Assembly: GCA_965204745.1 (NCBI GenBank)
Contig: OZ242010.1
Coordinates: 2,176,001-2,240,000 of the forward strand
DNA length: 64,000 bases
Reading direction: 5' to 3'
From: Candidatus Latescibacterota bacterium
GTDB taxonomy: Bacteria > Latescibacterota > UBA2968
The notes beneath the pieces were generated by a model. The model saw only the letters and a list, made by a program, of their open reading frames with translations. It was not told the origin of the DNA and ran no database searches. Below are positions 8,029-32,664 of this stretch, one piece after another (the first letter of the stretch is position 1; each line of letters begins with the position of its first letter). Position numbers and translations under genes: made by a program.

Positions 8029-8217
8029 TTACCCTTGAAACAGCAAAGCGTTGAGACGAATGCCCCAACGCTTTGATCTCTAACCCCTAACCAGATGTGA
8101 TTCCCCCTTGGATCTTTGGACGAGCACGGGGGCATCGCCCAAAAAGGTGAGAGGTGAGAGGCAAGACGGGAGAAGGCCACCTCTCTCCCCTCTTCCTGTC
8201 AGAAAGGTAGGTAGGTA

Positions 8218-11529: not shown

Positions 11530-11637
11530 CTGTAGATGCCTTTTTCATCTTCGGTCAGGTGAGAGGTGAGAGGCAAGACGGAAGACGGGAGATATAAGAG
11601 GGGAGAGGGTTTGTCAGTTCCAATTCATCCTCAAGTC

Positions 11638-11690: not shown

Positions 11691-11840
11691 GCGTCATTCA
11701 GCGATCAGCCTGGCGTCATTCTGACGAAATTATACCCCTGTATATTTTAGGCAAAATCCAGTGACTTTTGTCTTTCTCTCCTTTGCCTCTTGTATCTTTG
11801 GGCGAGCCGTGTGTAGGGGCAGCACCCCTACGTTTCTATC

Positions 11841-11905
11841 CTCGCCTCTTGCCTCTCACCTCTTGCCTCTCACCTCTTACCTCTTGCCTCTTACCTCTTA
11901 CCTCT
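11841..11905 (+). repeat. Heptamer tandem repeat (CCTCTTG/CCTCTCA/CCTCTTA)
   Basis: About nine 7-bp units; contains a 27/28 match to the reconstructed empty IS110 site. Confidence 0.9.
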
Positions 11906-12415
11906 CCCCGCTTGCCGCCTATGCTCTACCCGTCCAAACAACGGCAGATCTGCCCGTCCCGCGCTTTCTATCTTCTGGTGACACGACGGGCACAAGCTAA
12001 TCAAATTGCTCAGTTGATTGGCCTCTTGTGGCGAATCGAACAGCCGATACGGAACTTTGTGATGCACGTCCATCTGCCGCCCGAGTGCGTCTTCTGTTAT
12101 CCCGCACGCCACGCAACAAAACCCATCGCGTTCCCGCGCCAAGCCCGCCTGCGTCTTCCAATTTCCCCCGCGGTATTCGGGGCGACCTTCGAGCACGAGT
12201 TCAAACGCCTCATCGGCCTCCCAGTCGGCTCTGCACGTATTGTTGCAAAACTGCGCGTGCATACCCCGCTCAACGTACCAGCGCGGTTGGGCAAATCGCT
12301 TGCCACACTGCACGCACCGCACCGCGACCTGATCCTCGCGCCGAACTTGCCGCTCCTCATCGAACGCCAAGCGCATCTGCGGCGACGCGATTGCCGAATG
12401 CTTTCCGTCTGCCAT
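11891..12415 (-). CDS. HNH endonuclease with N-terminal Cys zinc finger
   Basis: CxxC...FCxxxC, then RERDGFCCVACG...VHH...N...NLISLCPSCH; GGAG RBS before ATG 12415. Confidence 0.85.
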   Translation of the reverse strand: MADGKHSAIASPQMRLAFDEERQVRREDQVAVRCVQCGKRFAQPRWYVERGMHAQFCNNTCRADWEADEAFELVLEGRPEYRGGNWKTQAGLARERDGFCCVACGITEDALGRQMDVHHKVPYRLFDSPQEANQLSNLISLCPSCHQKIESAGRADLPLFGRVEHRRQAGRGKR

Positions 12416-13228: not shown

Positions 13229-13312
13229 TTTACCCATTCGCTATTTCGATTTTGAGCGCGGAGGAAAAGCCGCGCCCGGTCTGTGCGACAGCTTTTGCAA
13301 AGGAGGCTCCAG

Positions 13313-16300
13313 ATGATCACCGCCATTTTCAGCCGCTGTTTGAACCTCATTTGGTGCTATGTTCCCACCGTGAAAAGTGGCGTTCATATCGCCCATTCTC
13401 GTCTTGATGTGTGGTTCTATTTCATTGCAAAACAATCTGTTAGGATGATCAGTACAGTGTACCCCCCCCCCCCCCCCCCCCCCCCTCTCGGAGAGGGGGA
13501 CAAAATGACGCCCCGCTACGCTCGCTTGTTGGCCCTGGTCGCGCTGGGCATGCTGGTGGCATCAGGGCCGGCTTTTGCCCAAACCGACTACGACTCGGAC
13601 AACGACGGCTACATTGATGTAGCCAACCTCGCACAGCTCAACGCCATTCGCTGGGATCTCAATGGCGATGGTGTTGTGTCGAGCACCGACTCTACAAACT
13701 ACTTCACCGCCTTCAGTAACCCCGCCTCGGGCATGGGGTGTCCGTCCTCCGGCTGTAATGGCTACGAACTGCTCAACAACTTGGACTTTGACGAGAACAA
13801 CGACAACTCAATCACCTCAGCAGACGCCACCTATTGGAACAACGGTGCCGGATGGCTACCCATAGGTGGTACCTACACGGGCAATTTCAAGGGCAACGGC
13901 TACACCATCGACAACCTGTTCATCAACCGTGGCTCCGCCAGCGCTATCGGACTGTTCTATCAATTTGGATCCAGCTCCCGCGTCGAAACCCTCGGCATCA
14001 TCAACGCCAATGTTACGTTAAAGAAATATGGCGGTATTCTGGTATACCAAAATTCCGGCACAATCGTCGCCTGCTACACCACCGGCACAGTGACGGGGGA
14101 AGAAAAAATTTCTGGATTAGTCGGCTGGGCTGGCACAGGAAGTATCTCAACTAGCTACTCCCATGCATCCGTTACAACCTCCACCAACGATAGCGATGTC
14201 GGCGGTTTGGTAGGCGAGATATGGGGCAATGCCATTATAAGAAATTCGTACTTCGCAGGTACCATCAACGGCACCAATTCCGCCGGCGGATTAGTCGGGG
14301 ACGAAGACGGAGGTAGCGCGTACGACAGCTACTGGGACTCCTCAAAAGCTTCAGGGACGATCCAACTGGGTAGCGGTCAGTCCACTACCACTCTCCAAGG
14401 TACCACCGGCTATACTGGCATCTACGCCAACTGGAACCTGGACTTGGATGGCAATACCAACACCGGCGATAGCCAAGGCAGAGACGATCCGTGGAACTTC
14501 GGCACCAGTAGCCAGTACCCGGTACTGAAGTACGTCGGTCCTTCCGCGGTAGTGATTGACCACGATGGCGATAACGATGGCCTGATTGACATCAAGACTT
14601 TGGCGCAACTCAACGCCATTCGCCACGACCTCAACGGCAATGGCGACGCTACCCACGCCGATTATGCCGCCGCCTTTCCCGGCCGAGTCACCACCAGTAG
14701 CGGCCGGATGGGTTGCCCGTCCGGGACCTGCACTGGCTACGAACTGCTCAACAACTTGGACTTTGACGAGAACAACGACGGCGCGATCACCCAAGCAGAC
14801 ACCACCTACTGGAATAGCGGTGCCGGCTGGGACCCTCTGGGGACTTACACCGGCACGTTCAAGGGCAACAACAAGACCATCTCCCACCTGTTCATCAACC
14901 GGGGGTCTCGGCATAATACAGGATTGTTCCAGGCGGTTGATGGCGATGTTTCGGGGTTGGGGTTGTTGAATGTGGATGTGACCGGCCGTGACCGCGTGGG
15001 TGGTCTGGCCGGTAATCAAGGTGGTGGGGGCACCATCTCGTCGTGTTATGTGACGGGTCGCGTTTCGGGGTCGAAGTGGGGTGTGGGTGGTTTGGTTGGT
15101 CGGTCTTTTCGCACTTCGGGCACCAACCGCATTGTGAGCAGCTATGCGAGAGTCTCTGTGCGCGTTCCTGCGTCTGTGACGAGTGGCGGGATGGCCGGCG
15201 GTTTGGTGGGTTGGCTGACCGATCAGACCGAGGTGGTGGCGTCTTACGCGATGGGCTCTGTGTTCGTGGGACACAGTAGCGGGGTGGGCGGTGGGTTGGT
15301 GGGTCAAATCGCGAGCGGCGGTGGCGTGACCGCGAGCTACTCGATAGGGCGGGTCACGGGTGCCGGCACGAAAGGCGGTTTGGTGGGTAGCATATCTGGC
15401 ACAGTGACCGATAGCTACTGGGACACGCAAGAAAGCGGCATTGCCGACGATGGCGATACTGTTGCGCCGGAGGGCAAGCTGATCTCCGACTTACAATCGG
15501 TCACGTCTGCGAGCGGCATCTATGCCAACTGGGACGATCTGACCATAGATGCTTCGGGGGCCAACGATGATGATCCCTGGACCTTTGGCACGACAAAGCA
15601 GTATCCGGTCTTGACGTTTGCCGACATGGACACCACGGTGCAATTCGCTATCCAACCTGTGCATTATGACACGGATAGCGACGGCCTCCTCGAGGTCTCG
15701 ACCTTGGCCCAACTGCATGCCATGCGCTGGGATCTCAATGGCGATGGGGTCGTCGCCGATAGTGATGCCATGACCTACAACGCCGCCTTTCCCAACGGGA
15801 ACTTGTCACGGAGCAAGGGGTGTCCTTCCACAGGTTGCATCGGCTACGAACTGCTCGCCAACCTGGACTTTGACACCTCCGGCGACGGAGAGATCACCTC
15901 AGCAGACGCCACCTACTGGAATGGCGGCGCCGGCTGGGCACCCATCGGCAGTAGCAACACCTCCCCATACACCGCCACGTTTGAGGGCAACGGCAAGACG
16001 ATCTCCCACCTGTACATCAACCGCTACGTCAACTTTTCGGGATTTTTCGCAAGCACGGATACCACTACCCACATTCGCTCTTTGGGGTTGGTCAACGCGG
16101 TGATCAATACGGGTCAGGGCACGGTGGGCGCGCTGGTGGGTCTGAACAAGGGTCGGATCGCGGCGAGTTACGTCACGGGGTCGGTCACGGCGAGCACCAA
16201 TGTCGGCGGGTTGGCGGGCGCCACTCAGAGGGGGTCGTACATCGTGGCGAGTTACGCCACGGCGTCTGTGGTGTGCAATCAGTCGGGGCCGTGGTCCACT

Positions 16301-19300
16301 GGCGGCGGGTTGGTAGGTGCCAATGGTCCGGGTGCGACGATCGCGTCGAGCTACTCAACAGGCTCAGTGACGGGGGCCTGCCTGCACAAGCATGGGCTGG
16401 CGGAAAACTCAGGTACAGTGACCGATAGCTACTGGGACACGCAAACAAGCGACATTGCCGATGATAGCGATACTGTTGCGCCGGAGGGCAAGTTGACCTC
16501 CGACTTACAATCGGTCACGTCTGCGAGCGGCATCTATGCCAACTGGGACGATCTGACCATAGATGCTTCGGGGGCCAACGATGATGATCCCTGGACCTTT
16601 GGCACGACGAATCAGTATCCGGCCTTGAAGTTTGCCGGCCTGGACACCACGGCGCAGTTCGCTACCCAACCCGTGCATTACGACACGGATAGCGATGGCC
16701 TCCTCGAGGTCTCGACCTTGGCCCAACTGCATGCCATGCGCTGGGATCTCAATGGCGATGGGGTCGTAGCCGATAGTGATGCCATGACCTACAACGCCGC
16801 CTTTCCCAACGGGAACTTGTCAGCGAGCAAGGGTTGCCCTTCCACAGGTTGCATCGGCTACGAACTGCTCAACAACTTGGACTTTGACGAGAACAACGAC
16901 GGCGCGATCACCCAAGCAGACGCCACCTACTGGAATAGCGGCGCCGGCTGGGACCCTGTGGGGCCTTACGGCGGCACATTCAAAGGCAACAACAAGACGA
17001 TCTCCCACCTGTTCATCAACCGGGGGTCTCGGCATAATACAGGATTGTTCCATGCGGTTGATGGCGATGTTTCGGGATTGGGGTTGTTGAATGTGAATGT
17101 GACCGGTGCTGACCGCGTGGGTGGTCTGGCCGGTAATCAAGGTGGTGGGGGCACCATCTCGTCGTGTTATGTGACGGGTCGCGTTTCGGGGTCGCGGTGG
17201 GGTGTGGGTGGTTTGGTTGGTCGGTCTTATCGCACTTCGGGCAGCAACCGCATTGTGAGCAGCTACGCGCTCGTCTCTGTGCGGGTTCCTGCACATGTGA
17301 CGAGTGACGGGCTGGCTGGCGGTTTGGTGGGTTGGCTGACCGATCAGACCGAGGTGGTGGCGTCTTACGCGCTGGGCTCTGTGTTCGCGGGACACAGCAG
17401 CGCGGTGGGCGGCGGGTTGGTGGGTCAAATCGCGAGCAACGCTGACGTGACAGCTAGCTACGCGATAGGACGGGTCACGGGTGCAGGCACGAAAGGCGGG
17501 TTGGTGGGCAGTTCGGCTGGTACAGTGACCGATAGCCACTGGGACACCTCCACCAGCGGGCAGACCACCAGTGCCGGCGGTAGCGGCGTTGTTGGCAAGA
17601 CGACTAGCGATCTCCTAAGCCCTACTACCTACGGTGCCACCGCCAACGACACCTACTACAACTGGAACGCCAACCTCGACGGACAACCCGGCAACGATGA
17701 TCCGTGGACCTTTGGCGCGATGGATCAGTATCCGGCCTTGAAGTATGCCGGCATGGACACCACCGCGCAATTTCAGCTTCAACCCGCGAGAGTGACGTTG
17801 ACCCTGATGCCCTCGTCGATCTCGGAAAGCGGCGGGATGGGCACTGTGACCGCGACGCTGGCACACCCGTTGAGCGCGGCAACGACGATCACGGTGCGCC
17901 CTGTGGCGGGTGCTTACACGGTGGGGTCGGATACGACGATCACCATCGCGGCCGGGAGCACTGCGAACGCGACGGATACGGTGGTCATCACAGCGGTGAA
18001 CAACACCCAAGACGAGCCTAATCGCGATGTGACCGTGTCCGTTGTGGCGGGCAACGCCCAAGGCGCGGGCAGTGTAACTGGTGCGACTTTGACGCTGGAG
18101 GACGACGACCCTGCACCGACAGCGACGTTGGCGGCGTCACCGGCGTCGATTTCGGAGAACGGCGCGGTTTCGACGATCACGGCGTCGCTATCGCGTCCAT
18201 CGAGCGCGGCGACGACGATCACGGTGCGCCCGGTGGCGGGTGCTTACACGGTGGGGGCGGATACGACGATCACCATCGCGGCCGGGGACACGATTAACGC
18301 GTCGGACACGGTGGTCATCACAGCGGTGAACAATACCCAAGACGCGCCTAATCGCGACGTGACCGTGCTAGGTGTGATGAGCAACACCCAAGGCGCGGGC
18401 AGTGTGACCGGTGCGGCTTTGACGCTGACGGACGACGACGTTGCGCCGGACGTGACGATGGTTTTGTCGCCTGCGTCGATTTCAGAGGACGGCGCGATTT
18501 CGACGGTGACCGCGACCCTGTCTCACACGTCGAGCGCGGCGACGACGATCACGGTTTCAGCGTCGGCTGTGTCGCCTGCGGTTCCGGGCGACTACATGCT
18601 GAGTACGCCGGCCACGCTGACCGTCGCGGCGGGCGCAACGACGAGCACGGGCACCGTGACGATCACGACGGTGGACAACAGCATATCTTCGGGGAACAAG
18701 ACGGTGACCGTGTCGAGCACGGTGGGCAACAGCATAGGCACGGGATCGGTCACTGATGCGACGCTGACGATTATCGATGACGAAGTGGCGCAGGTGACAT
18801 TGGTTTTGACTCCGGCGTCAATTACGGAGAATGCCCAGATTTCCACGATCACGGCGACGCTAGATCGCGTTGCAACCGTGGCGACGACGGTCACGGTTTC
18901 AGCGACCCCGGTGGCCCCTGCGGTTGCGGGCGATTTTACGCTATCGACCGCGACCACGCTGACCTTCGCGGCGAATGTGACGACGAGCACAGGCGCCGTG
19001 ACGATCACCTCGGTGAACGACACGACCGATGCGCCGGACAAGCGCGTGACCGTGTCTGCAACGGTGGCAGGTGGCAATGGGGCGTCGCTATCGTCTGCCG
19101 TGACCCTGACGATCACCGACGATGAGGCCGCGCCGGATGTGGCACTGACGCTGTCGCCCGCGTCGATTGCAGAGACCGGCGGTGTTTCGACGATCACGGC
19201 GACGCTGTCGCATCGGTCGAGCGCGGCGACGACGATCACAGTGCGCCCGGTGGCGGGTGCCTACACGGTGGGGATGGATTCGACGATCACCATCGCGGCT

Positions 19301-21211
19301 GGGAGCACGGCGAACGCGACGGACACAGTAGAGATCACGGCCGTGGACAACGCGACCGATGCGCCGAACAATTCCTTGACCGTGTCTGTTGCGGTGAGCA
19401 ATGACCAAGGCGCAGGCAACGTGACCGGCACGGCTTTGACGATCACAGACGATGACGCCGCGCCGGACGTGACACTAATGCTGTCGCCCGCGTCCATCTC
19501 GGAGGATGGCGGCGTGAGCACGGTGACGGCGACGCTGACACACCCATCGAGTGAGGCGACGACGATCACGGTGCGCCCGGTGGCGAATGCCTACACGGTG
19601 GGTTCGGATTCGACGATTACCATCGCGGCTGGGAGCACGGCGAACGCGACGGACACGGTGGCACTCACCGCCGTGGACAACGACATAGACGCATCAGACA
19701 ACGCGGTGATGGTGCAGACCGCCGCTGTGGAGAACGACCACGGCGCGGGCAACGTGCAGGCTACGTCGCTGACGATCACCGATGACGACGAGGCGGCGAT
19801 TGAGGTGTCGGCGATGACCACGACGACGGTCAGGCTCCACACGACAGAGTCGGGCAGGGCCGAGACCTTCACGGTCACGCTCGCCTCCGAGCCGACGGGG
19901 AACGTGGCCCTCTCGGTGGTCAGTTCAGACACGACGGAAGGCACTGTATCGCCCTCGGTGCTGACCTTCTCATCGACAACATGGAGCACGGCGCAAACCG
20001 TGACCGTGACCGGGCAGGACGATACTCCCGCCGCCGTCGATGGCAACCAGAACTATACGGTCACCCTTTCGGTGAACCAGACGGATACGCAGGACACCAA
20101 CTACGACGCGCTCACCGCGATCATCGTGTACATGGTCAACCGCGATAACGATTTCGGCTTGGACATAAGCGCGGTGACCGGGCAGGCCACAGAGGCCGGT
20201 GCCTCGGCGACCTTCACGGTGGCCCTGCTGACGCAACCCTCGGCGGCGGTAACGATTTCGGTGACGAGCCAAGACCCGAGCGAAGGGCGGGTTGAGCCTG
20301 CGATGCTGACCTTCGCGCCGACGAGCTATAACACGGCACAAACCGTGACCGTGACCGGGCAGGACGACATCATCGACGACGGGAACGTCACCTGGACGGT
20401 GCGACTCGCCCTATCAAGCGGCGATGCCAACTACAACACCCTTTCGGACGAGGATGTTCCGGTGACGACGACCGACGATGAAGATGCGCCGACCGTGACG
20501 TTGGTGCTCACACCCTCGTCCATCTCGGAAAACGGCGAGGTTTCCACGGTGAGCGCGACCCTATCGCATCCATCGAGCGGGATCACGACGATCACGGTCT
20601 CTGCTACGCCTGTGTCCCCTGCGACTGCGAGCGACTTCACGCTATCGAGTGCAGACACGCTGATCATCGCGGCGACGACCACAACGAGCACGGGCACCGT
20701 GACGATCACCGCAGAGGACAACAACGACCAGGCAGACGAGAAGATGGTCAGGGTGTCTGCAACCGCAAACAACGCCCAAGGCATCACCGATCCTTCGCCC
20801 GTGACCCTGACCCTGACCGATGACGAAACACCGAGTGCCAACTTGGATGTGGATGGCGATGGCCGGGTGAGATTGTTCTCGGATATAATCCTGGTCATTC
20901 GATACGTCCTCTTCTTCCGGGAAGAGGCCCTCCTCAGAGGGAACGTCATCGAGCCAACTGCCACGCGCACGACCGCTCAAGAAATTGAACCCTACCTCGA
21001 CACGTTGGTCAATCAGAACATTCTCGATGTGGATGGCGATGGCGATGTGAGGCTGTTCTCGGATATAATCCTGATCATTCGATATGTCCTCTTCTTCCGG
21101 AACGAGGCCCTCGTCAGAGGGAACGTCATCGAGCCAACTGCCACGCGCACGACCTCTCAAGCCATTGAACCCTACATCCGAAGCCTCTATCCCGCCTCCC
21201 ACTTCCAATGA
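13313..21211 (+). CDS. Giant secreted adhesin-like protein (GLUG/beta-helix repeats, Calx-beta/Ig-like Thr-rich repeats, duplicated dockerin-like DxDGDG domain)
   Basis: ATG 13313 has a perfect AGGAGG; the signal-peptide-like segment starts at ATG 13505 (MTPRYARLLALVALGMLVASGPAFA). VGGLVG motifs, TITDDD repeats and near-identical internal repeats at ~1.0 and ~2.1 kb spacing. Confidence 0.85.
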   Translation: MITAIFSRCLNLIWCYVPTVKSGVHIAHSRLDVWFYFIAKQSVRMISTVYPPPPPPPPLGEGDKMTPRYARLLALVALGMLVASGPAFAQTDYDSDNDGYIDVANLAQLNAIRWDLNGDGVVSSTDSTNYFTAFSNPASGMGCPSSGCNGYELLNNLDFDENNDNSITSADATYWNNGAGWLPIGGTYTGNFKGNGYTIDNLFINRGSASAIGLFYQFGSSSRVETLGIINANVTLKKYGGILVYQNSGTIVACYTTGTVTGEEKISGLVGWAGTGSISTSYSHASVTTSTNDSDVGGLVGEIWGNAIIRNSYFAGTINGTNSAGGLVGDEDGGSAYDSYWDSSKASGTIQLGSGQSTTTLQGTTGYTGIYANWNLDLDGNTNTGDSQGRDDPWNFGTSSQYPVLKYVGPSAVVIDHDGDNDGLIDIKTLAQLNAIRHDLNGNGDATHADYAAAFPGRVTTSSGRMGCPSGTCTGYELLNNLDFDENNDGAITQADTTYWNSGAGWDPLGTYTGTFKGNNKTISHLFINRGSRHNTGLFQAVDGDVSGLGLLNVDVTGRDRVGGLAGNQGGGGTISSCYVTGRVSGSKWGVGGLVGRSFRTSGTNRIVSSYARVSVRVPASVTSGGMAGGLVGWLTDQTEVVASYAMGSVFVGHSSGVGGGLVGQIASGGGVTASYSIGRVTGAGTKGGLVGSISGTVTDSYWDTQESGIADDGDTVAPEGKLISDLQSVTSASGIYANWDDLTIDASGANDDDPWTFGTTKQYPVLTFADMDTTVQFAIQPVHYDTDSDGLLEVSTLAQLHAMRWDLNGDGVVADSDAMTYNAAFPNGNLSRSKGCPSTGCIGYELLANLDFDTSGDGEITSADATYWNGGAGWAPIGSSNTSPYTATFEGNGKTISHLYINRYVNFSGFFASTDTTTHIRSLGLVNAVINTGQGTVGALVGLNKGRIAASYVTGSVTASTNVGGLAGATQRGSYIVASYATASVVCNQSGPWSTGGGLVGANGPGATIASSYSTGSVTGACLHKHGLAENSGTVTDSYWDTQTSDIADDSDTVAPEGKLTSDLQSVTSASGIYANWDDLTIDASGANDDDPWTFGTTNQYPALKFAGLDTTAQFATQPVHYDTDSDGLLEVSTLAQLHAMRWDLNGDGVVADSDAMTYNAAFPNGNLSASKGCPSTGCIGYELLNNLDFDENNDGAITQADATYWNSGAGWDPVGPYGGTFKGNNKTISHLFINRGSRHNTGLFHAVDGDVSGLGLLNVNVTGADRVGGLAGNQGGGGTISSCYVTGRVSGSRWGVGGLVGRSYRTSGSNRIVSSYALVSVRVPAHVTSDGLAGGLVGWLTDQTEVVASYALGSVFAGHSSAVGGGLVGQIASNADVTASYAIGRVTGAGTKGGLVGSSAGTVTDSHWDTSTSGQTTSAGGSGVVGKTTSDLLSPTTYGATANDTYYNWNANLDGQPGNDDPWTFGAMDQYPALKYAGMDTTAQFQLQPARVTLTLMPSSISESGGMGTVTATLAHPLSAATTITVRPVAGAYTVGSDTTITIAAGSTANATDTVVITAVNNTQDEPNRDVTVSVVAGNAQGAGSVTGATLTLEDDDPAPTATLAASPASISENGAVSTITASLSRPSSAATTITVRPVAGAYTVGADTTITIAAGDTINASDTVVITAVNNTQDAPNRDVTVLGVMSNTQGAGSVTGAALTLTDDDVAPDVTMVLSPASISEDGAISTVTATLSHTSSAATTITVSASAVSPAVPGDYMLSTPATLTVAAGATTSTGTVTITTVDNSISSGNKTVTVSSTVGNSIGTGSVTDATLTIIDDEVAQVTLVLTPASITENAQISTITATLDRVATVATTVTVSATPVAPAVAGDFTLSTATTLTFAANVTTSTGAVTITSVNDTTDAPDKRVTVSATVAGGNGASLSSAVTLTITDDEAAPDVALTLSPASIAETGGVSTITATLSHRSSAATTITVRPVAGAYTVGMDSTITIAAGSTANATDTVEITAVDNATDAPNNSLTVSVAVSNDQGAGNVTGTALTITDDDAAPDVTLMLSPASISEDGGVSTVTATLTHPSSEATTITVRPVANAYTVGSDSTITIAAGSTANATDTVALTAVDNDIDASDNAVMVQTAAVENDHGAGNVQATSLTITDDDEAAIEVSAMTTTTVRLHTTESGRAETFTVTLASEPTGNVALSVVSSDTTEGTVSPSVLTFSSTTWSTAQTVTVTGQDDTPAAVDGNQNYTVTLSVNQTDTQDTNYDALTAIIVYMVNRDNDFGLDISAVTGQATEAGASATFTVALLTQPSAAVTISVTSQDPSEGRVEPAMLTFAPTSYNTAQTVTVTGQDDIIDDGNVTWTVRLALSSGDANYNTLSDEDVPVTTTDDEDAPTVTLVLTPSSISENGEVSTVSATLSHPSSGITTITVSATPVSPATASDFTLSSADTLIIAATTTTSTGTVTITAEDNNDQADEKMVRVSATANNAQGITDPSPVTLTLTDDETPSANLDVDGDGRVRLFSDIILVIRYVLFFREEALLRGNVIEPTATRTTAQEIEPYLDTLVNQNILDVDGDGDVRLFSDIILIIRYVLFFRNEALVRGNVIEPTATRTTSQAIEPYIRSLYPASHFQ
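13462..13485 (+). repeat. Poly-C(24) homopolymer
   Basis: 24 consecutive C, in frame as a poly-Pro run between the two ATGs. Confidence 0.9.
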
Positions 21212-21456: not shown

Positions 21457-21464
21457 ACTTTTTG

Positions 21465-21820
21465 GGACCTACCCCCCTAACCCCCCTTCCTGCGAGGAAG
21501 GGGGGAACGGTGAGCGGTTTTGCGAGGGGAATGGCGATAGGTTTTTTGGGGTTCATTGATCCATTCGCTCAAAGCCATCAAAACAGGCCTGGATGCAAAC
21601 CTTTCAGAAAGCCATGCGCTCCCCCTTTCCTTGTAGGAAAGGGGGCCGGGGGGATAGGTCGCATTTTCATGGCATGATCCATTCGCGCAAAGCCATCAAA
21701 ACAGCCAGGGATACAAACCTTCAAAAAGCCATGTGCTCCCCCTTTCCTTGTAGGCACAGGCGTAGCCTACAATGAGCGAAGCGAATAACGGGGGCCGGGG
21801 GGATAGGTCTCTATGGCGGG
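21465..21820. repeat. Right arm of the long inverted repeat, with an internal ~120-bp duplication
   Basis: Inverted match to 12874-13115; the GATCCATTCGC..AAAGCCATCAAAACAG block occurs twice. Confidence 0.85.
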
Positions 21821-21902
21821 GGATGCGAAGGACACAGCGGAGTGGGAACGATGAAGCGGTGGTAGGGTGGTGGGTGGCTCTCACCTCTTGTATGTTGTCA
21901 GA

Positions 21903-22110
21903 AAGGGTTAATTTAGGTGTTGCGCCCTCGCATCGAGACACGCCATCTTGATGCCCTGCTCGGGGAAGGCCGGCGCCTCTTGAAGGCTATGACCTTGTAA
22001 GTAAGATAGGCCCCCCGACCGCCGAGTTGATACCGAAGAGTATCTAAGTCCATTGAGGCTGCATATACAAGACCGGTAGACTGGGCAAACAGTCGGGACG
22101 CGAACCCGAG
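21903..22110 (+). ncRNA. Predicted bridge RNA of the IS110 element (ends approximate)
   Basis: Target loop: GGCGCCTCT (21972-21980) and AAGTAAG (21999-22005). Donor loop: AGAGTATCT (22037-22045) and ATACAAG (22065-22071). Each loop is closed by stems. Confidence 0.85.
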
Positions 22111-22154
22111 CGCACACCAGACCCCTTCCCCACCCCTCATCACAGGAGGCCCCG

Positions 22155-23162
22155 ATGTCGAACACTCAACCCGCTTTTGCCGGCATTGATGTCAGTGCCC
22201 ACACGTTGTCCGTTGCCCTGTCCAGACCCGGACAAGGGGTCATGCAAGCCACCTTTGACAACGCGCCTCGGGCGCACAAGCACCTGTTGAAGTGGCTCAC
22301 CAAGGGCGGGCGCATGGTCTCGGTCTGTCTCGAAGCGACCGGGCGTTATAGCTTGGGGGTGGCCTTGGCCTTGCATCAGCATCGCTGCACGCAGGTCATG
22401 GTCGTCAATCCCAAAGCGATGAGCAAGTACGCTCAAGCCTGCATGCAACGGGCAAAGACAGATGCGAAGGATGCGTTGTTGATCCTCGATGATGCCGAGC
22501 GCATGCCCTTTGTGCCTTGGCAAGTGCCGAGCGAGCACGTCCTGCAACTGCAAACGCTGACCAGACGCATTGACCAACTCAAACAGGAGGTCAGCCGCGA
22601 ACAGAACCGGCACCACGCGCAGGACTACCCCGTCAAGCGTGCCCGCCTCATCACACGCGATATTCAGGTGAATATTCGACACCTCAAACGCCGCATTGCC
22701 TACTTGGAAGACCAAGCCCTCAAACTCGTTTTGCAGGACGAGACCCAAAAGCGTGCCTACCAGCACCTCTGCTCGGTGCCCGGTATCGCCCAAACGAGTG
22801 CCTTGCGGCTCTTGGCCGAGCTGGCCTCCTTGCCAGACGGGATGGAACCGCCCCAATGGGTCGCTCATGCAGGCCTGGATCCCAAACCCAAACAATCCGG
22901 GATGGCCAACCCGGAAAGACGCATCTCGAAAACCGGAAATAAATATCTCCGCCATGCCCTCTACATGCCTGCTTGGGTGGCCTGCAGGCACGAAGTCCAT
23001 GTCAAAGCCTTTTATGACAAACTCATCGCCAGGGGCAAGAAACCTTTGCAGGCTATCGTTGCGGTGATGCGAAAGTTGCTCCATTCGATCTGGGGCATGT
23101 TGCGGCATGACCAAGATTTTGAGGGCGAGAAATTCTATCGAATCACCCCGAAAACCCCTTGA
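22155..23162 (+). CDS. IS110 family recombinase/transposase
   Basis: RuvC-like DEDD residues (GIDVS, LEATG, KTDAKDA), SVPGI, catalytic KQSG, GNKYLR; AGGAGG RBS. Confidence 0.95.
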   Translation: MSNTQPAFAGIDVSAHTLSVALSRPGQGVMQATFDNAPRAHKHLLKWLTKGGRMVSVCLEATGRYSLGVALALHQHRCTQVMVVNPKAMSKYAQACMQRAKTDAKDALLILDDAERMPFVPWQVPSEHVLQLQTLTRRIDQLKQEVSREQNRHHAQDYPVKRARLITRDIQVNIRHLKRRIAYLEDQALKLVLQDETQKRAYQHLCSVPGIAQTSALRLLAELASLPDGMEPPQWVAHAGLDPKPKQSGMANPERRISKTGNKYLRHALYMPAWVACRHEVHVKAFYDKLIARGKKPLQAIVAVMRKLLHSIWGMLRHDQDFEGEKFYRITPKTP

Positions 23163-23438
23163 CCTTTTAAGAGAGTATCTTACTTCTTGCCTCTTACTCG
23201 GGGATAGGGCTTGCGGTGGGGCGGTGATGGGATGGGCACGCATGGGCGGCAGGGCATGCGAAGGACATAGCGGTGGGGAACGATGAAGCGGTGGTGGGGA
23301 TGCGGGGTAATCCGCGTAATCCCCTAATCCGTTTAATCCGCGATTCTCCGCCTTTGACCTTGACACGCAACATAGCGATTCCGATATTGGACGCAACAGA
23401 GGTTTGTCGAACAATTTACAACGCACTTGGAGCGCGCT

Positions 23439-24605
23439 ATGGCTGAACGAAAGAAGATCGCGGCGATTGTGACTTCGTATTTTCCCCGGTCGCATGCGGA
23501 TGTGATTGTGACGAAGTTTTTGAAGGGGTTCCCCACGGATGACGGGTTGTTGTTGCCGGAGGTGGATGTCGCGTCGATGTATTTGGATCAAGTGCATTTT
23601 AGAGACGATATCGGGTGCGCGATAGCAGAGGAGTTTGGAGTGCCGATGTATGGAAGTATTACGCGAGCTCTGACGTTGGGAGGAAGCGAGTTGGCGGTGG
23701 ATGGCGTGTTGCTGATCGGCGAACACGGGGATTATGCGTGGAATGAAAAAGAACAACACATGTATCCGCGCAAGTATTTTTTTGAGCAAATCTGCGGGGT
23801 GTTTGCCTCGTCCGGGCGGGCGGTGCCGGTGTTTAATGACAAGCATCTCTCGTACAACTGGCAAGACGCCAAGTGGATGTACGACCGCGCGTGCGAACTC
23901 GAGGTGCCGTTTATGGCCGGGTCGTCCGTGCCGCTGGCATGGCGCAAGCCGTGGATCGACTATGCGTTGGATGCGGAGATCGAAAAGGCGATGTCCGTGG
24001 CGTATAGCGGGCTGGATTCCTACGGGTTTCACGCATTGGAGCTCTTACAGTGTATGGTGGAGCGGCGCGCTGGCGGCGAGACCGGGATTGTGGCTGTGAG
24101 GTGTTTGGAGGGCGACGATGTTTGGGCGTCCGATGCGTGGGATCGCGATCTCTACGCGGCGGCGGTGGCACCCATCGAGGCGAAAGAAGAGGGCGATGTG
24201 CGCGACCACTGCGAAAATCCAGCGCTCTTTTTGTTGGAATATGCGGATGGATTGCAGGCGGCGACGTTGATGTTGAATGGGTACACAAAAGGGTGGGGCT
24301 TCGCAGCGCGGCGAAACGGACAGGTGGAGGGCATGCGCGTTTTGTTGCCGGATAGCCCGCATCCGCATTTCAGTTATTTGAGTTTGAATGTCCAGCAGAT
24401 GTTTTTGACGGGCGAGCCGCAGTACCCGGTCGAGCGCACGCTGTTGGTGTCTGGCGCGCTGGAGGCGTTGTTGGATTCGCGGTATCAAGGGCACGAGCGC
24501 GTCAAGACGCCGCATTTGCAGGTGGCCTATCAATCGTATCGAAAGATGCCGATTCGCCCGGTGAATCCGCATCCGATGGGCGCGAGTTTGGCGCCGTTTG
24601 AATGA
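23439..24605 (+). CDS. Conserved hypothetical protein, probable NAD(P)-binding oxidoreductase-like fold
   Basis: SHADVI, DGVLLIGEHGDY, FNDKHL, YGFHALE motifs; GGAG RBS. Confidence 0.6.
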   Translation: MAERKKIAAIVTSYFPRSHADVIVTKFLKGFPTDDGLLLPEVDVASMYLDQVHFRDDIGCAIAEEFGVPMYGSITRALTLGGSELAVDGVLLIGEHGDYAWNEKEQHMYPRKYFFEQICGVFASSGRAVPVFNDKHLSYNWQDAKWMYDRACELEVPFMAGSSVPLAWRKPWIDYALDAEIEKAMSVAYSGLDSYGFHALELLQCMVERRAGGETGIVAVRCLEGDDVWASDAWDRDLYAAAVAPIEAKEEGDVRDHCENPALFLLEYADGLQAATLMLNGYTKGWGFAARRNGQVEGMRVLLPDSPHPHFSYLSLNVQQMFLTGEPQYPVERTLLVSGALEALLDSRYQGHERVKTPHLQVAYQSYRKMPIRPVNPHPMGASLAPFE

Positions 24606-32527: not shown

Positions 32528-32664
32528 TAAGAGGCAAGACGTAAGACGTAAGACGTAAGACGTAAGACGCAAGACGCAAGACGTAAGACGCAAGACGCAA
32601 GACGCAAGACGCAAGACGTAAGACGTAAGACGTAAGACGTAAGACGCAAGACGTAAGACGTAAG
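32528..32664 (+). repeat. Heptamer VNTR: TAAGAGG followed by (YAAGACG) x18
   Basis: Units counted directly from 32535 to 32660. Confidence 0.95.

Follow-up and report, generated by a model that had tools for sequence, protein, structure and literature searches.

Introduction

IS621 of Escherichia coli (PDB 8wt6) is directed by a bridge RNA whose 5′ arms pair with the bottom strand over 8–9 nt and whose 3′ arms pair with the top strand over 4–7 nt (Durrant et al., 2024, PMC11208160), and its recombinase has a composite active site built from residues D11, E60, D102, D105, S241 and G242 (Hiraizumi et al., 2024, PMC11208158). In Pseudomonas putida, the IS110 elements ISPpu10 and ISPpu9 are present in multiple copies in repeated sequences, either intergenic repeats or repetitive extragenic palindromes (REP) (10.64898/2026.03.19.712850; PMC12288879), and the IS1111/seekRNA elements share the recombinase superfamily and the RNA-guided principle. 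Here we describe an IS110-family insertion sequence in a stretch of 64,000 nucleotides (hereafter the window) from a Candidatus Latescibacterota bacterium (assembly GCA_965204745.1, contig OZ242010.1, positions 2,176,001 to 2,240,000 of the forward strand). This element is real and intact and very probably moves, like IS621, by bridge-RNA-guided recombination; its guides are aimed at a heptamer repeat dispersed in the genome of its host. Coordinates are those of the window unless they carry the prefix C1, which refers to the genome.

Boundaries and copies of the element

The genome consists of a single contig of 5.48 Mb with 56.5% G+C and holds 52 full-length copies of the element, each of 1288–1294 bp and with the same ends as the window copy, which together take up 1.25% of it; another 11 hits were partial. 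All but one of these copies start with TGTAT, the exception being copy 5200253 with a 1-nt insertion (TGCTAT). The non-coding left end (21889–22154) comprises 266 nt and the right end extends 18 nt past the stop codon. Because ten empty paralogous sites were found in which a left flank ending in CT meets TACTT or TACCT with a gap of 0, the element is exactly the stretch between the two CT cores, and by comparison of these sequences insertion produces no duplication outside CT and the empty site is free of a scar. Two more paralogues of the repeat flanking the window copy were without two heptamers. The CT-bounded ends put forward in a preliminary description of this locus were borne out by the 52 copies and the ten empty sites, and its motif coordinates all proved correct when the junctions, both loops, the stems and the promoter hexamers were re-read in the sequence; its range of 21878–23197 encloses the element but takes in the flanking heptamer tract as well.

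The open reading frame (ORF) was intact in 51 copies. Among the 45 copies of the largest guide class (class B, see below) the median pairwise identity was 1.0, and the window copy was 99.8% identical to copy 289979. As judged from their sequences, the copies arose in a recent burst, and the element is probably active. In the seven bases to the left of the core, outside the element, four class-B copies read TTACCT and not TCCCCT. At C1:1121577–1124185 two class-B copies stand in tandem with exactly one heptamer (TACCT + CT) between them, the left flank of the second copy being the right end of the first plus one heptamer. Contigs of two of four sequencing runs (2 contigs and 1 contig, respectively) contained a joint skipping exactly 1292 bases, the reading of which as excision was discounted because at the 90% likeness observed it may stem from the empty paralogues.

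The recombinase and the predicted bridge RNA

The protein encoded by the element matched PF01548 (DEDD, RuvC-like, N-terminal; E 1.4e-24), PF02371 (Tnp, C-terminal; E 3.1e-19) and the NCBIfam family NF033542, ‘IS110 family RNA-guided transposase’ (209.6 bits, cutoff 140). The only solved structures related to it by sequence were those of the ISCro4 and IS621 recombinases, with ISCro4 (PDB 9t56) as the best relative (phmmer E 2.2e-35, residues 7–326) and IS621 aligned from residues 7/8 to 326 with an E of 3e-32. In the phmmer alignment D12, E60, D103, D106, S248 and G249 correspond to the IS621 residues D11, E60, D102, D105, S241 and G242 (the PDB chain numbering of 8wt6 being offset by +2), and these D-E-D-D, S and G positions were unchanged in four relatives. 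Sequence homology places the protein among the IS110-family DEDD/Tnp recombinases, as a relative of the IS621 and ISCro4 bridge recombinases.

Both the minimum free energy (MFE) and the centroid fold of 21890–22154 contain, besides a 5′ stem-loop, two hairpins that are each opened by a large internal loop, so the two hairpins drawn in the preliminary description are present in the MFE fold. The target hairpin has an outer stem CGGGG..GGCC / GGCC..CCCCG, an AA bulge and an inner stem-loop at 21983–21996. As had also been proposed, the donor loop reads the joined ends of the element, matching them completely with both of its guides, and the target loop reads the flanks: the right target guide (RTG) matches completely, and at the seven 3′ positions of the left target guide (LTG) there are six matches to the left flank CTCACCTCT and one wobble, in which a guide G lies opposite an A of the flank and hence forms G:T with the bottom strand. 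The protein homology, the two-loop RNA and the fit of its guides to donor and target jointly bore out the claim of an IS621-type bridge architecture. The dinucleotide AU that directly follows the RTG, which the preliminary description does not mention, may be a handshake guide in the sense of Hiraizumi et al. (PMC11208158), as it could pair with donor positions 6–7 (AT of AGAGTAT) after strand exchange; its counterpart AC in the donor loop could pair via the A only, with target T7. The positions of these features are listed in Table 1.

Table 1. Positions of the element, its flanks, its gene and the predicted RNA features in the window
Feature	Position	Strand	Remarks
IS110-family insertion sequence	21889..23180	+	1292 bp, one CT core counted
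Left target flank	21878..21888	+	Heptamer CTCTCAC, then CTCT; left target (LT) CTCACCT at 21880-21886; core CT at 21887-21888
Right donor half (RD) TGTAT	21889..21893	+	First bases of left end; with core, reverse complement of the RDG ATACAAG
Putative -10 half TATGTT	21891..21896	+	Completed only in circular form; role by analogy with IS621 (PMC11208160)
5′ stem-loop of predicted bridge RNA	21930..21954	+	GCATCGAGA / TCTTGATGC, 7-nt loop; MFE and centroid fold
Target-binding loop hairpin	21961..22017	+	Fold, covariance model, pair counts
Left target guide (LTG) GGCGCCTCT	21972..21980	+	Same sense as top strand of LT + core
Right target guide (RTG) AAGTAAG	21999..22005	+	Reverse complement of CT+TACTT; 7/7 match to 23179-23185
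Putative handshake guide AU, target loop	22006..22007	+	AT in 52/52 copies
Donor-binding loop hairpin	22031..22078	+	Outer stem TACCG/CGGTA, inner stem-loop 22047-22060; fold, covariance model, pair counts
Left donor guide (LDG) AGAGTATCT	22037..22045	+	Same as right end 23172-23180, 9/9; 51/52 copies
Right donor guide (RDG) ATACAAG	22065..22071	+	Reverse complement of CT+TGTAT, 7/7; 52/52 copies
Recombinase gene	22155..23162	+	335 aa; PF01548, PF02371, NF033542; matches to PDB 9t56 and 8wt6
Putative -35 half TTGACC	23159..23164	+	Overlaps stop codon; function inferred
Left donor half AGAGTAT and core CT	23172..23180	+	Right end of element; AGAGTAT at 23172-23178, CT at 23179-23180
Right target flank	23181..23197	+	TACTT at 23181-23185; heptamer tract goes on (TAC, TTCTTGC, CTCTTAC)

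A covariance model of the two hairpins (R1; 119 positions, 12 sequences, structure drawn by hand) matched 67 of 73 metagenomic relatives with 34–66% protein identity, on the coding strand and upstream of the ORF. In the R1 alignment 95.2% of the cells pair and double-sided changes occur in 14 of the 22 pairs (141 cells), a pairing reached by 0 of 500 shuffles and to be set against 28–50% when partners were slid by 1–3 columns, all of these counts being biased towards R1 as they were taken from an alignment fitted to it. In the alignment of these metagenomic relatives variation was highest in the guide columns, the RNA being conserved elsewhere.

Guide classes and their sites

The 52 copies comprise four guide classes, given here as LTG/RTG. 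Class A1, GGCGCCTCT/AAGTAAG, has four copies including that of the window, inserted at CTC(G/A)CCTCT with CTTACTT (three copies) or CTTACCT (one copy). Class A2, GGTGCCTCT/AAGTAAG, has two copies, one of which lies at CTTACCTCT/CTTACTT and fits, the C-to-U change in the guide being mirrored by a C-to-T change in the site, and the other of which is the aberrant copy 602771 dealt with below. Class B, GGCCCCTCT/AGGTAAG, makes up the remaining bulk with 45 copies, whose LT is CCCCTCT in 41 and TACCTCT in four and whose right target (RT) is CTTACCT in 24, CTTGCCT in 17 (U:G wobble), CTCCCGT in two and CTTGCCC and CTTACTT in one each. The single copy of class C, GGTCCCTCT/AGGTGAG, is located at CTTCCCTCT/CTCACCT with both arms exact.

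Mapping of the flanks of all genomic copies, which the preliminary description had named as a check, associated guides with sites at each of two discriminating positions (Fisher’s exact test, p = 2.7e-4 at each), and when the sites were shuffled among the 52 copies the observed number of pairs was reached in 0 of 10000 permutations. On this sequence comparison guides and sites co-vary, and their matches are beyond chance. Donor guides and ends remained constant over all guide classes, a modularity that a bridge RNA would be expected to show.

The occupancy of the sites differed with the quality of the match. Insertions of class B split a unit (CTCT|TAC or CTCT|TGC) preceded by a CTCTCCC unit, and the exact 12-mer sites of this class were occupied in 20 of 25 cases (80%) as against 17 of 82 (21%) for the wobble variant (p = 1.2e-7). 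For class A, 25 exact sites were free and two occupied.

Guides and targets in other genomes

A protein scan covering one genome per species detected the family in two metagenome-derived chromosome assemblies of Latescibacterota (75–81% protein identity) and in one Gemmatimonadota contig (48% identity). Model R1 had hits in five of the 41 genomes of the order, namely 60 in the present genome, 20 in genome Y (G020), 7 in genome X (G018), and 4 and 2 in two genomes of another genus, whose guides are non-heptamer. A comparison of one host protein placed Y (89%) and X (83%) closest to the present genome, the next genome being at 72%.

The 18 loci of genome Y have the guides CTCGCCTCT / AGGGAG; their left flank ends with CCTCT in all 18 and is exactly CTCGCCTCT in three, and the right flank begins with CTCCC in 16. 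The seven loci of genome X have the guides GATCC(T/C)CCT / AG(A/G)AAAG, with the right flank CTTTTCT in six and left flanks that match between four and seven of the seven 3′ guide positions. Taken together, 45 of the 77 insertions in the three genomes pair at all 14 scored positions, and none of 10000 permutations attained the observed fit.

The rule was also obeyed in a blind test on 43 distinct metagenomic relatives, in which the right end of the element was found by means of the relative’s own LDG (at most one substitution) and the reverse complement of the RTG was then compared with the right flank, the only flank scored. The match was 6/6 in 31 relatives and averaged 5.6, the first two of the six positions being the constant core, and no permutation out of 5000 reached this result. 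Many soil and sediment orthologues (L027–L099) have a right target starting with CTAACG and left guides such as GTTGCYGCC, and their sequences suggest that they share a conserved target across unrelated hosts.

Heptamer arrays as targets

The dispersed heptamer repeat of the host, to which the preliminary description had assigned the target, was confirmed by the abundance of BTCTYNC-type arrays: 680 arrays of at least three units were counted in the genome as compared with one in a first-order Markov genome. They add up to 27 kb, 66 of them have at least 10 units and the longest has 20 or more. Counted as four-unit windows over the 41 genomes of the order, the repeat is present 1667 times in this genome and 1464 times in Y, as opposed to 0–78 times in the other 39, many of which are single-contig assemblies. 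The window copy itself is located in a short tract of four heptamers that forms part of a longer dispersed repeat, and it is mainly the sister subfamily B that uses the long arrays. This longer repeat around the class-A target extends over 21790–21877 and 23198–23300, with 134 blast hits in the genome for the left and 80 for the right flank; it reads GCGAAGGACA.AGCGG..GGGAACGATGAAGCGGTGGT.GGG on the left and GGGGATAGGGCTTGCGGT on the right, and a second partial unit follows the element.

Within the window, the arrays at 32534–32659 and 8147–8174 lie between long ORFs; the intergenic place of those at 11559–11586 and 11839–11908 is less clear, and listed ORFs overlap the latter. Genome-wide, stop-to-stop ORFs of at least 200 codons cover 50% of the array bases as against 87% of the genome, a test too crude at 56.5% G+C to prove an intergenic position, which is nevertheless likely for the arrays as a whole. 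Some of the arrays are paired, a purine-rich and a pyrimidine-rich array being arranged in this order around a GGCCACC(C) or GTGGCC centre; this was seen 23 times within 30 nt (e.g. C1:747909–747986 and 1385015–1385071) and never in reverse order. These pairs form imperfect palindromes with the potential to fold and bear some resemblance to REP sequences or bacterial interspersed mosaic elements.

Heptamer-reading guides were found in this genome and in Y, which are also the sole two of the 41 genomes with about 1,500 four-unit windows, and in a sister species without arrays the guides of this element have been redirected to a site that is not a heptamer. A coupling of element and arrays, in which the recombinase would remodel or expand the arrays (e.g. 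by half-matched in-register exchange) and the saturation of perfect sites would drive the diversification of guides, is in our view rather unlikely; the link between array expansion and heptamer-reading guides may rest on a single ancestral event, and we regard the coupling as a lead only.

Proposed transposition cycle

By analogy with IS621, the element would leave its site as a circle. Joining of the right to the left end would place TTGACC ahead of TATGTT with a spacing of 18 nt (16 nt of the right end plus TG; 17 nt where a copy lacks one T), and the resulting promoter would drive an RNA of approximately 180 nt from the left end. TTGACC is present in the right ends of all 52 copies and of two loci of genome X (L002 and L005). 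No sigma-70-like site was detected upstream of the RNA in the integrated copy, which fits circle-dependent expression; weak expression from integrated IS621 loci has been reported (PMC13626964). The donor loop (AGAGTATCT, ATACAAG) would then pair with both strands of AGAGTAT-CT-TGTAT, the joined ends, and the target loop (GGCGCCTCT, AAGTAAG) with both strands of C(G/A)CCT-CT-TACTT within a heptamer tract of the host, whereupon a tetramer of the 335-aa DEDD/Ser recombinase would exchange strands at the CT core and leave no duplication beyond CT.

Alternative explanations

Several observations weigh against bridge-RNA-guided recombination as the mode of movement. The fold energy of the left end has a z-score of only −1.69, with 7 of 200 shuffles folding as well, and thermodynamics by itself is weak support for the RNA fold; the pair counts have the bias already mentioned. 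A scan of 21500–23500 against Rfam 15 at E values up to 10 returned no matching family, the three matches obtained being chance hits to eukaryotic RNA families, and a blastn search of 5,426 E. coli genomes with the left end, aimed at the RNA of IS621, gave no match. As donor and target both hold TCT(T), the junctions fit a CT or a TC/TT crossover alike. The 14-mer of the circle junction does not occur in the assembled genome, and no circle junction was listed in the contigs of the four sequencing runs over 21700–23400, in which rare forms are dropped. The target loop of genome Y shows, in both arms, a compensating 1-nt register shift relative to the window RNA. Among the class-B copies, the four with TACCTCT have two LT mismatches each, the two with the RT CTCCCGT match at 4/7 positions next to a perfect left half, recalling the half-match insertions named in 10.64898/2026.08.31.748434, and the RTs CTTGCCC and CTTACTT deviate in one copy each. 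Finally, copy 602771 (C1:602771–604086) does not fit its own guides (LT 6/9, RT 5/7), its site CTTCCCTCT/CTCACCT being an exact fit to those of class C. Its first ~100 nt are class-A-like and the remainder is class-C-like, with 96.4% identity to copy 1297031, and from its sequence it looks like a recombinant or like an insertion made in trans by a sibling RNA.

If the site were chosen by the protein or by the DNA structure of the heptamer arrays, the loop–flank matches would be incidental, and indeed heptamer words are very abundant in the genome, a number of arrays are arranged as inverted pairs around GGCCACC and could fold, a target stem-loop layer has been reported for ISPpu10 (10.64898/2026.03.19.712850) and the fold z-score is weak. 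Such a choice is nonetheless highly improbable, as guides and sites shift jointly over the four classes found here and over further classes in two sister genomes, the RTG rule holds for the 43 distant relatives with unrelated, non-heptamer targets, and the guide positions are those that vary most in the conserved RNA. The system might also be of the bridge type with many insertions directed in trans by sibling RNAs, the guides of the family forming a pool for one shared donor. The LDG, the RDG and the element ends are alike in all guide classes, the site of 602771 fits class C, copy L004 of genome X has a site closer to its sibling’s guide than to its own, and a bridge RNA supplied in trans works for IS621 (PMC11208160); yet most copies fit their own guide, as the 45 fully paired insertions out of 77 illustrate, and the recombinant-looking 602771 may have changed its guides after insertion, so that we consider this very unlikely as a general account. 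A reading of the window copy as an immobile relic, decayed or domesticated, for which the copy’s one LT wobble could be adduced, is barely conceivable in view of the copy’s intact ORF, its full set of catalytic residues and RNA motifs and its near-identity to copy 289979; between the natural target of IS621 and its guide, too, there is a difference at a single position (ATCAGGCCTAC vs ATCGGGCCTAC; PMC11208160).

Comparison with known systems

The resemblance to IS621 comprises the pair of protein domains with the aligned D-E-D-D, S and G positions, a long left and a short right end, the CT core, putative promoter halves divided between the ends, and two hairpins with internal loops whose 5′ arm (~9 nt) has top-strand sense and whose 3′ arm (7 nt) is complementary. 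A dispersed host repeat as target and the toleration of one LT mismatch (PMC11208160) are likewise common to both, and a putative handshake dinucleotide fits here in the target loop and in half in the donor loop. In contrast to IS621, the 5′ loops measure 11 nt and not 13, the donor hairpin 48 nt and not 68 (PMC11208158), the target is a 7-bp tandem repeat and not a REP palindrome, and 52 copies with four guide classes reside in one genome; the proteins are distant, as the phmmer E value indicates, and the left end shares no nucleotide similarity detectable by blastn with any of the E. coli genomes searched. ISCro4, the best solved relative, was compared by protein only. The location of multiple copies in repeated intergenic sequences is reminiscent of ISPpu10 and ISPpu9, but for ISPpu10 a target stem-loop requirement has been reported (10.64898/2026.03.19.712850), whereas here only a subset of the arrays occurs in inverted pairs. 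Unlike the present element, IS1111/seekRNA elements have their long non-coding end on the right and subterminal inverted repeats of 7–17 bp (PMC11208160); membership in that group was rejected because of the short right end and the position of the RNA upstream of the gene.

The mechanism of bridge-RNA recombination as known is left unchanged, and this is not a new kind of system. Of the claim in the preliminary description that this is a natural bridge system with a new target specificity, the first part is supported; the novelty was overrated: a specificity of its own is to be expected of almost any IS110 orthologue, 5,511 pairs of non-coding RNA and target having been analysed in PMC11208160, where guide–target covariation over IS110 orthologues was already published. 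The IS621 donor string given in that description has no occurrence in the main text of PMC11208160. Neither this element nor the targeting of heptamer arrays was described in the papers found by our literature search on tandem-repeat or heptamer targets of IS110 elements and on Latescibacterota transposases. As 10 copies are counted as high in a preprint (10.1101/2025.10.25.684509), the 52 found here are unusually many.

The copies provide a clean natural record of the reprogramming of a bridge RNA, with four guide classes on one donor module that match variants of a tandem repeat; perfect sites are nearly exhausted, and the sister genomes show further retargeting. They also offer a useful test bed for the tolerance of mismatches and wobbles, for half-match insertion and for guidance in trans in nature, and add a compact orthologue (335 aa, a predicted RNA of roughly 180 nt) from an uncultured Latescibacterota lineage.

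Neighbourhood of the element

A plus-strand ORF of 2642 aa (13283–21211), rich in internal repeats, stops some 670 nt short of the element; its C-terminal 60-aa unit is duplicated, corresponding to a 180-nt tandem repeat at 20846–21175. In the ORF translations at 21462–21775 a PFPCRKGG-like unit recurs. Over 21700–21813 the contig depth in the four sequencing runs, which are sponge-associated, was 10 to 100 times that over the element, suggesting that a further short repeat of very high abundance lies directly upstream of it.

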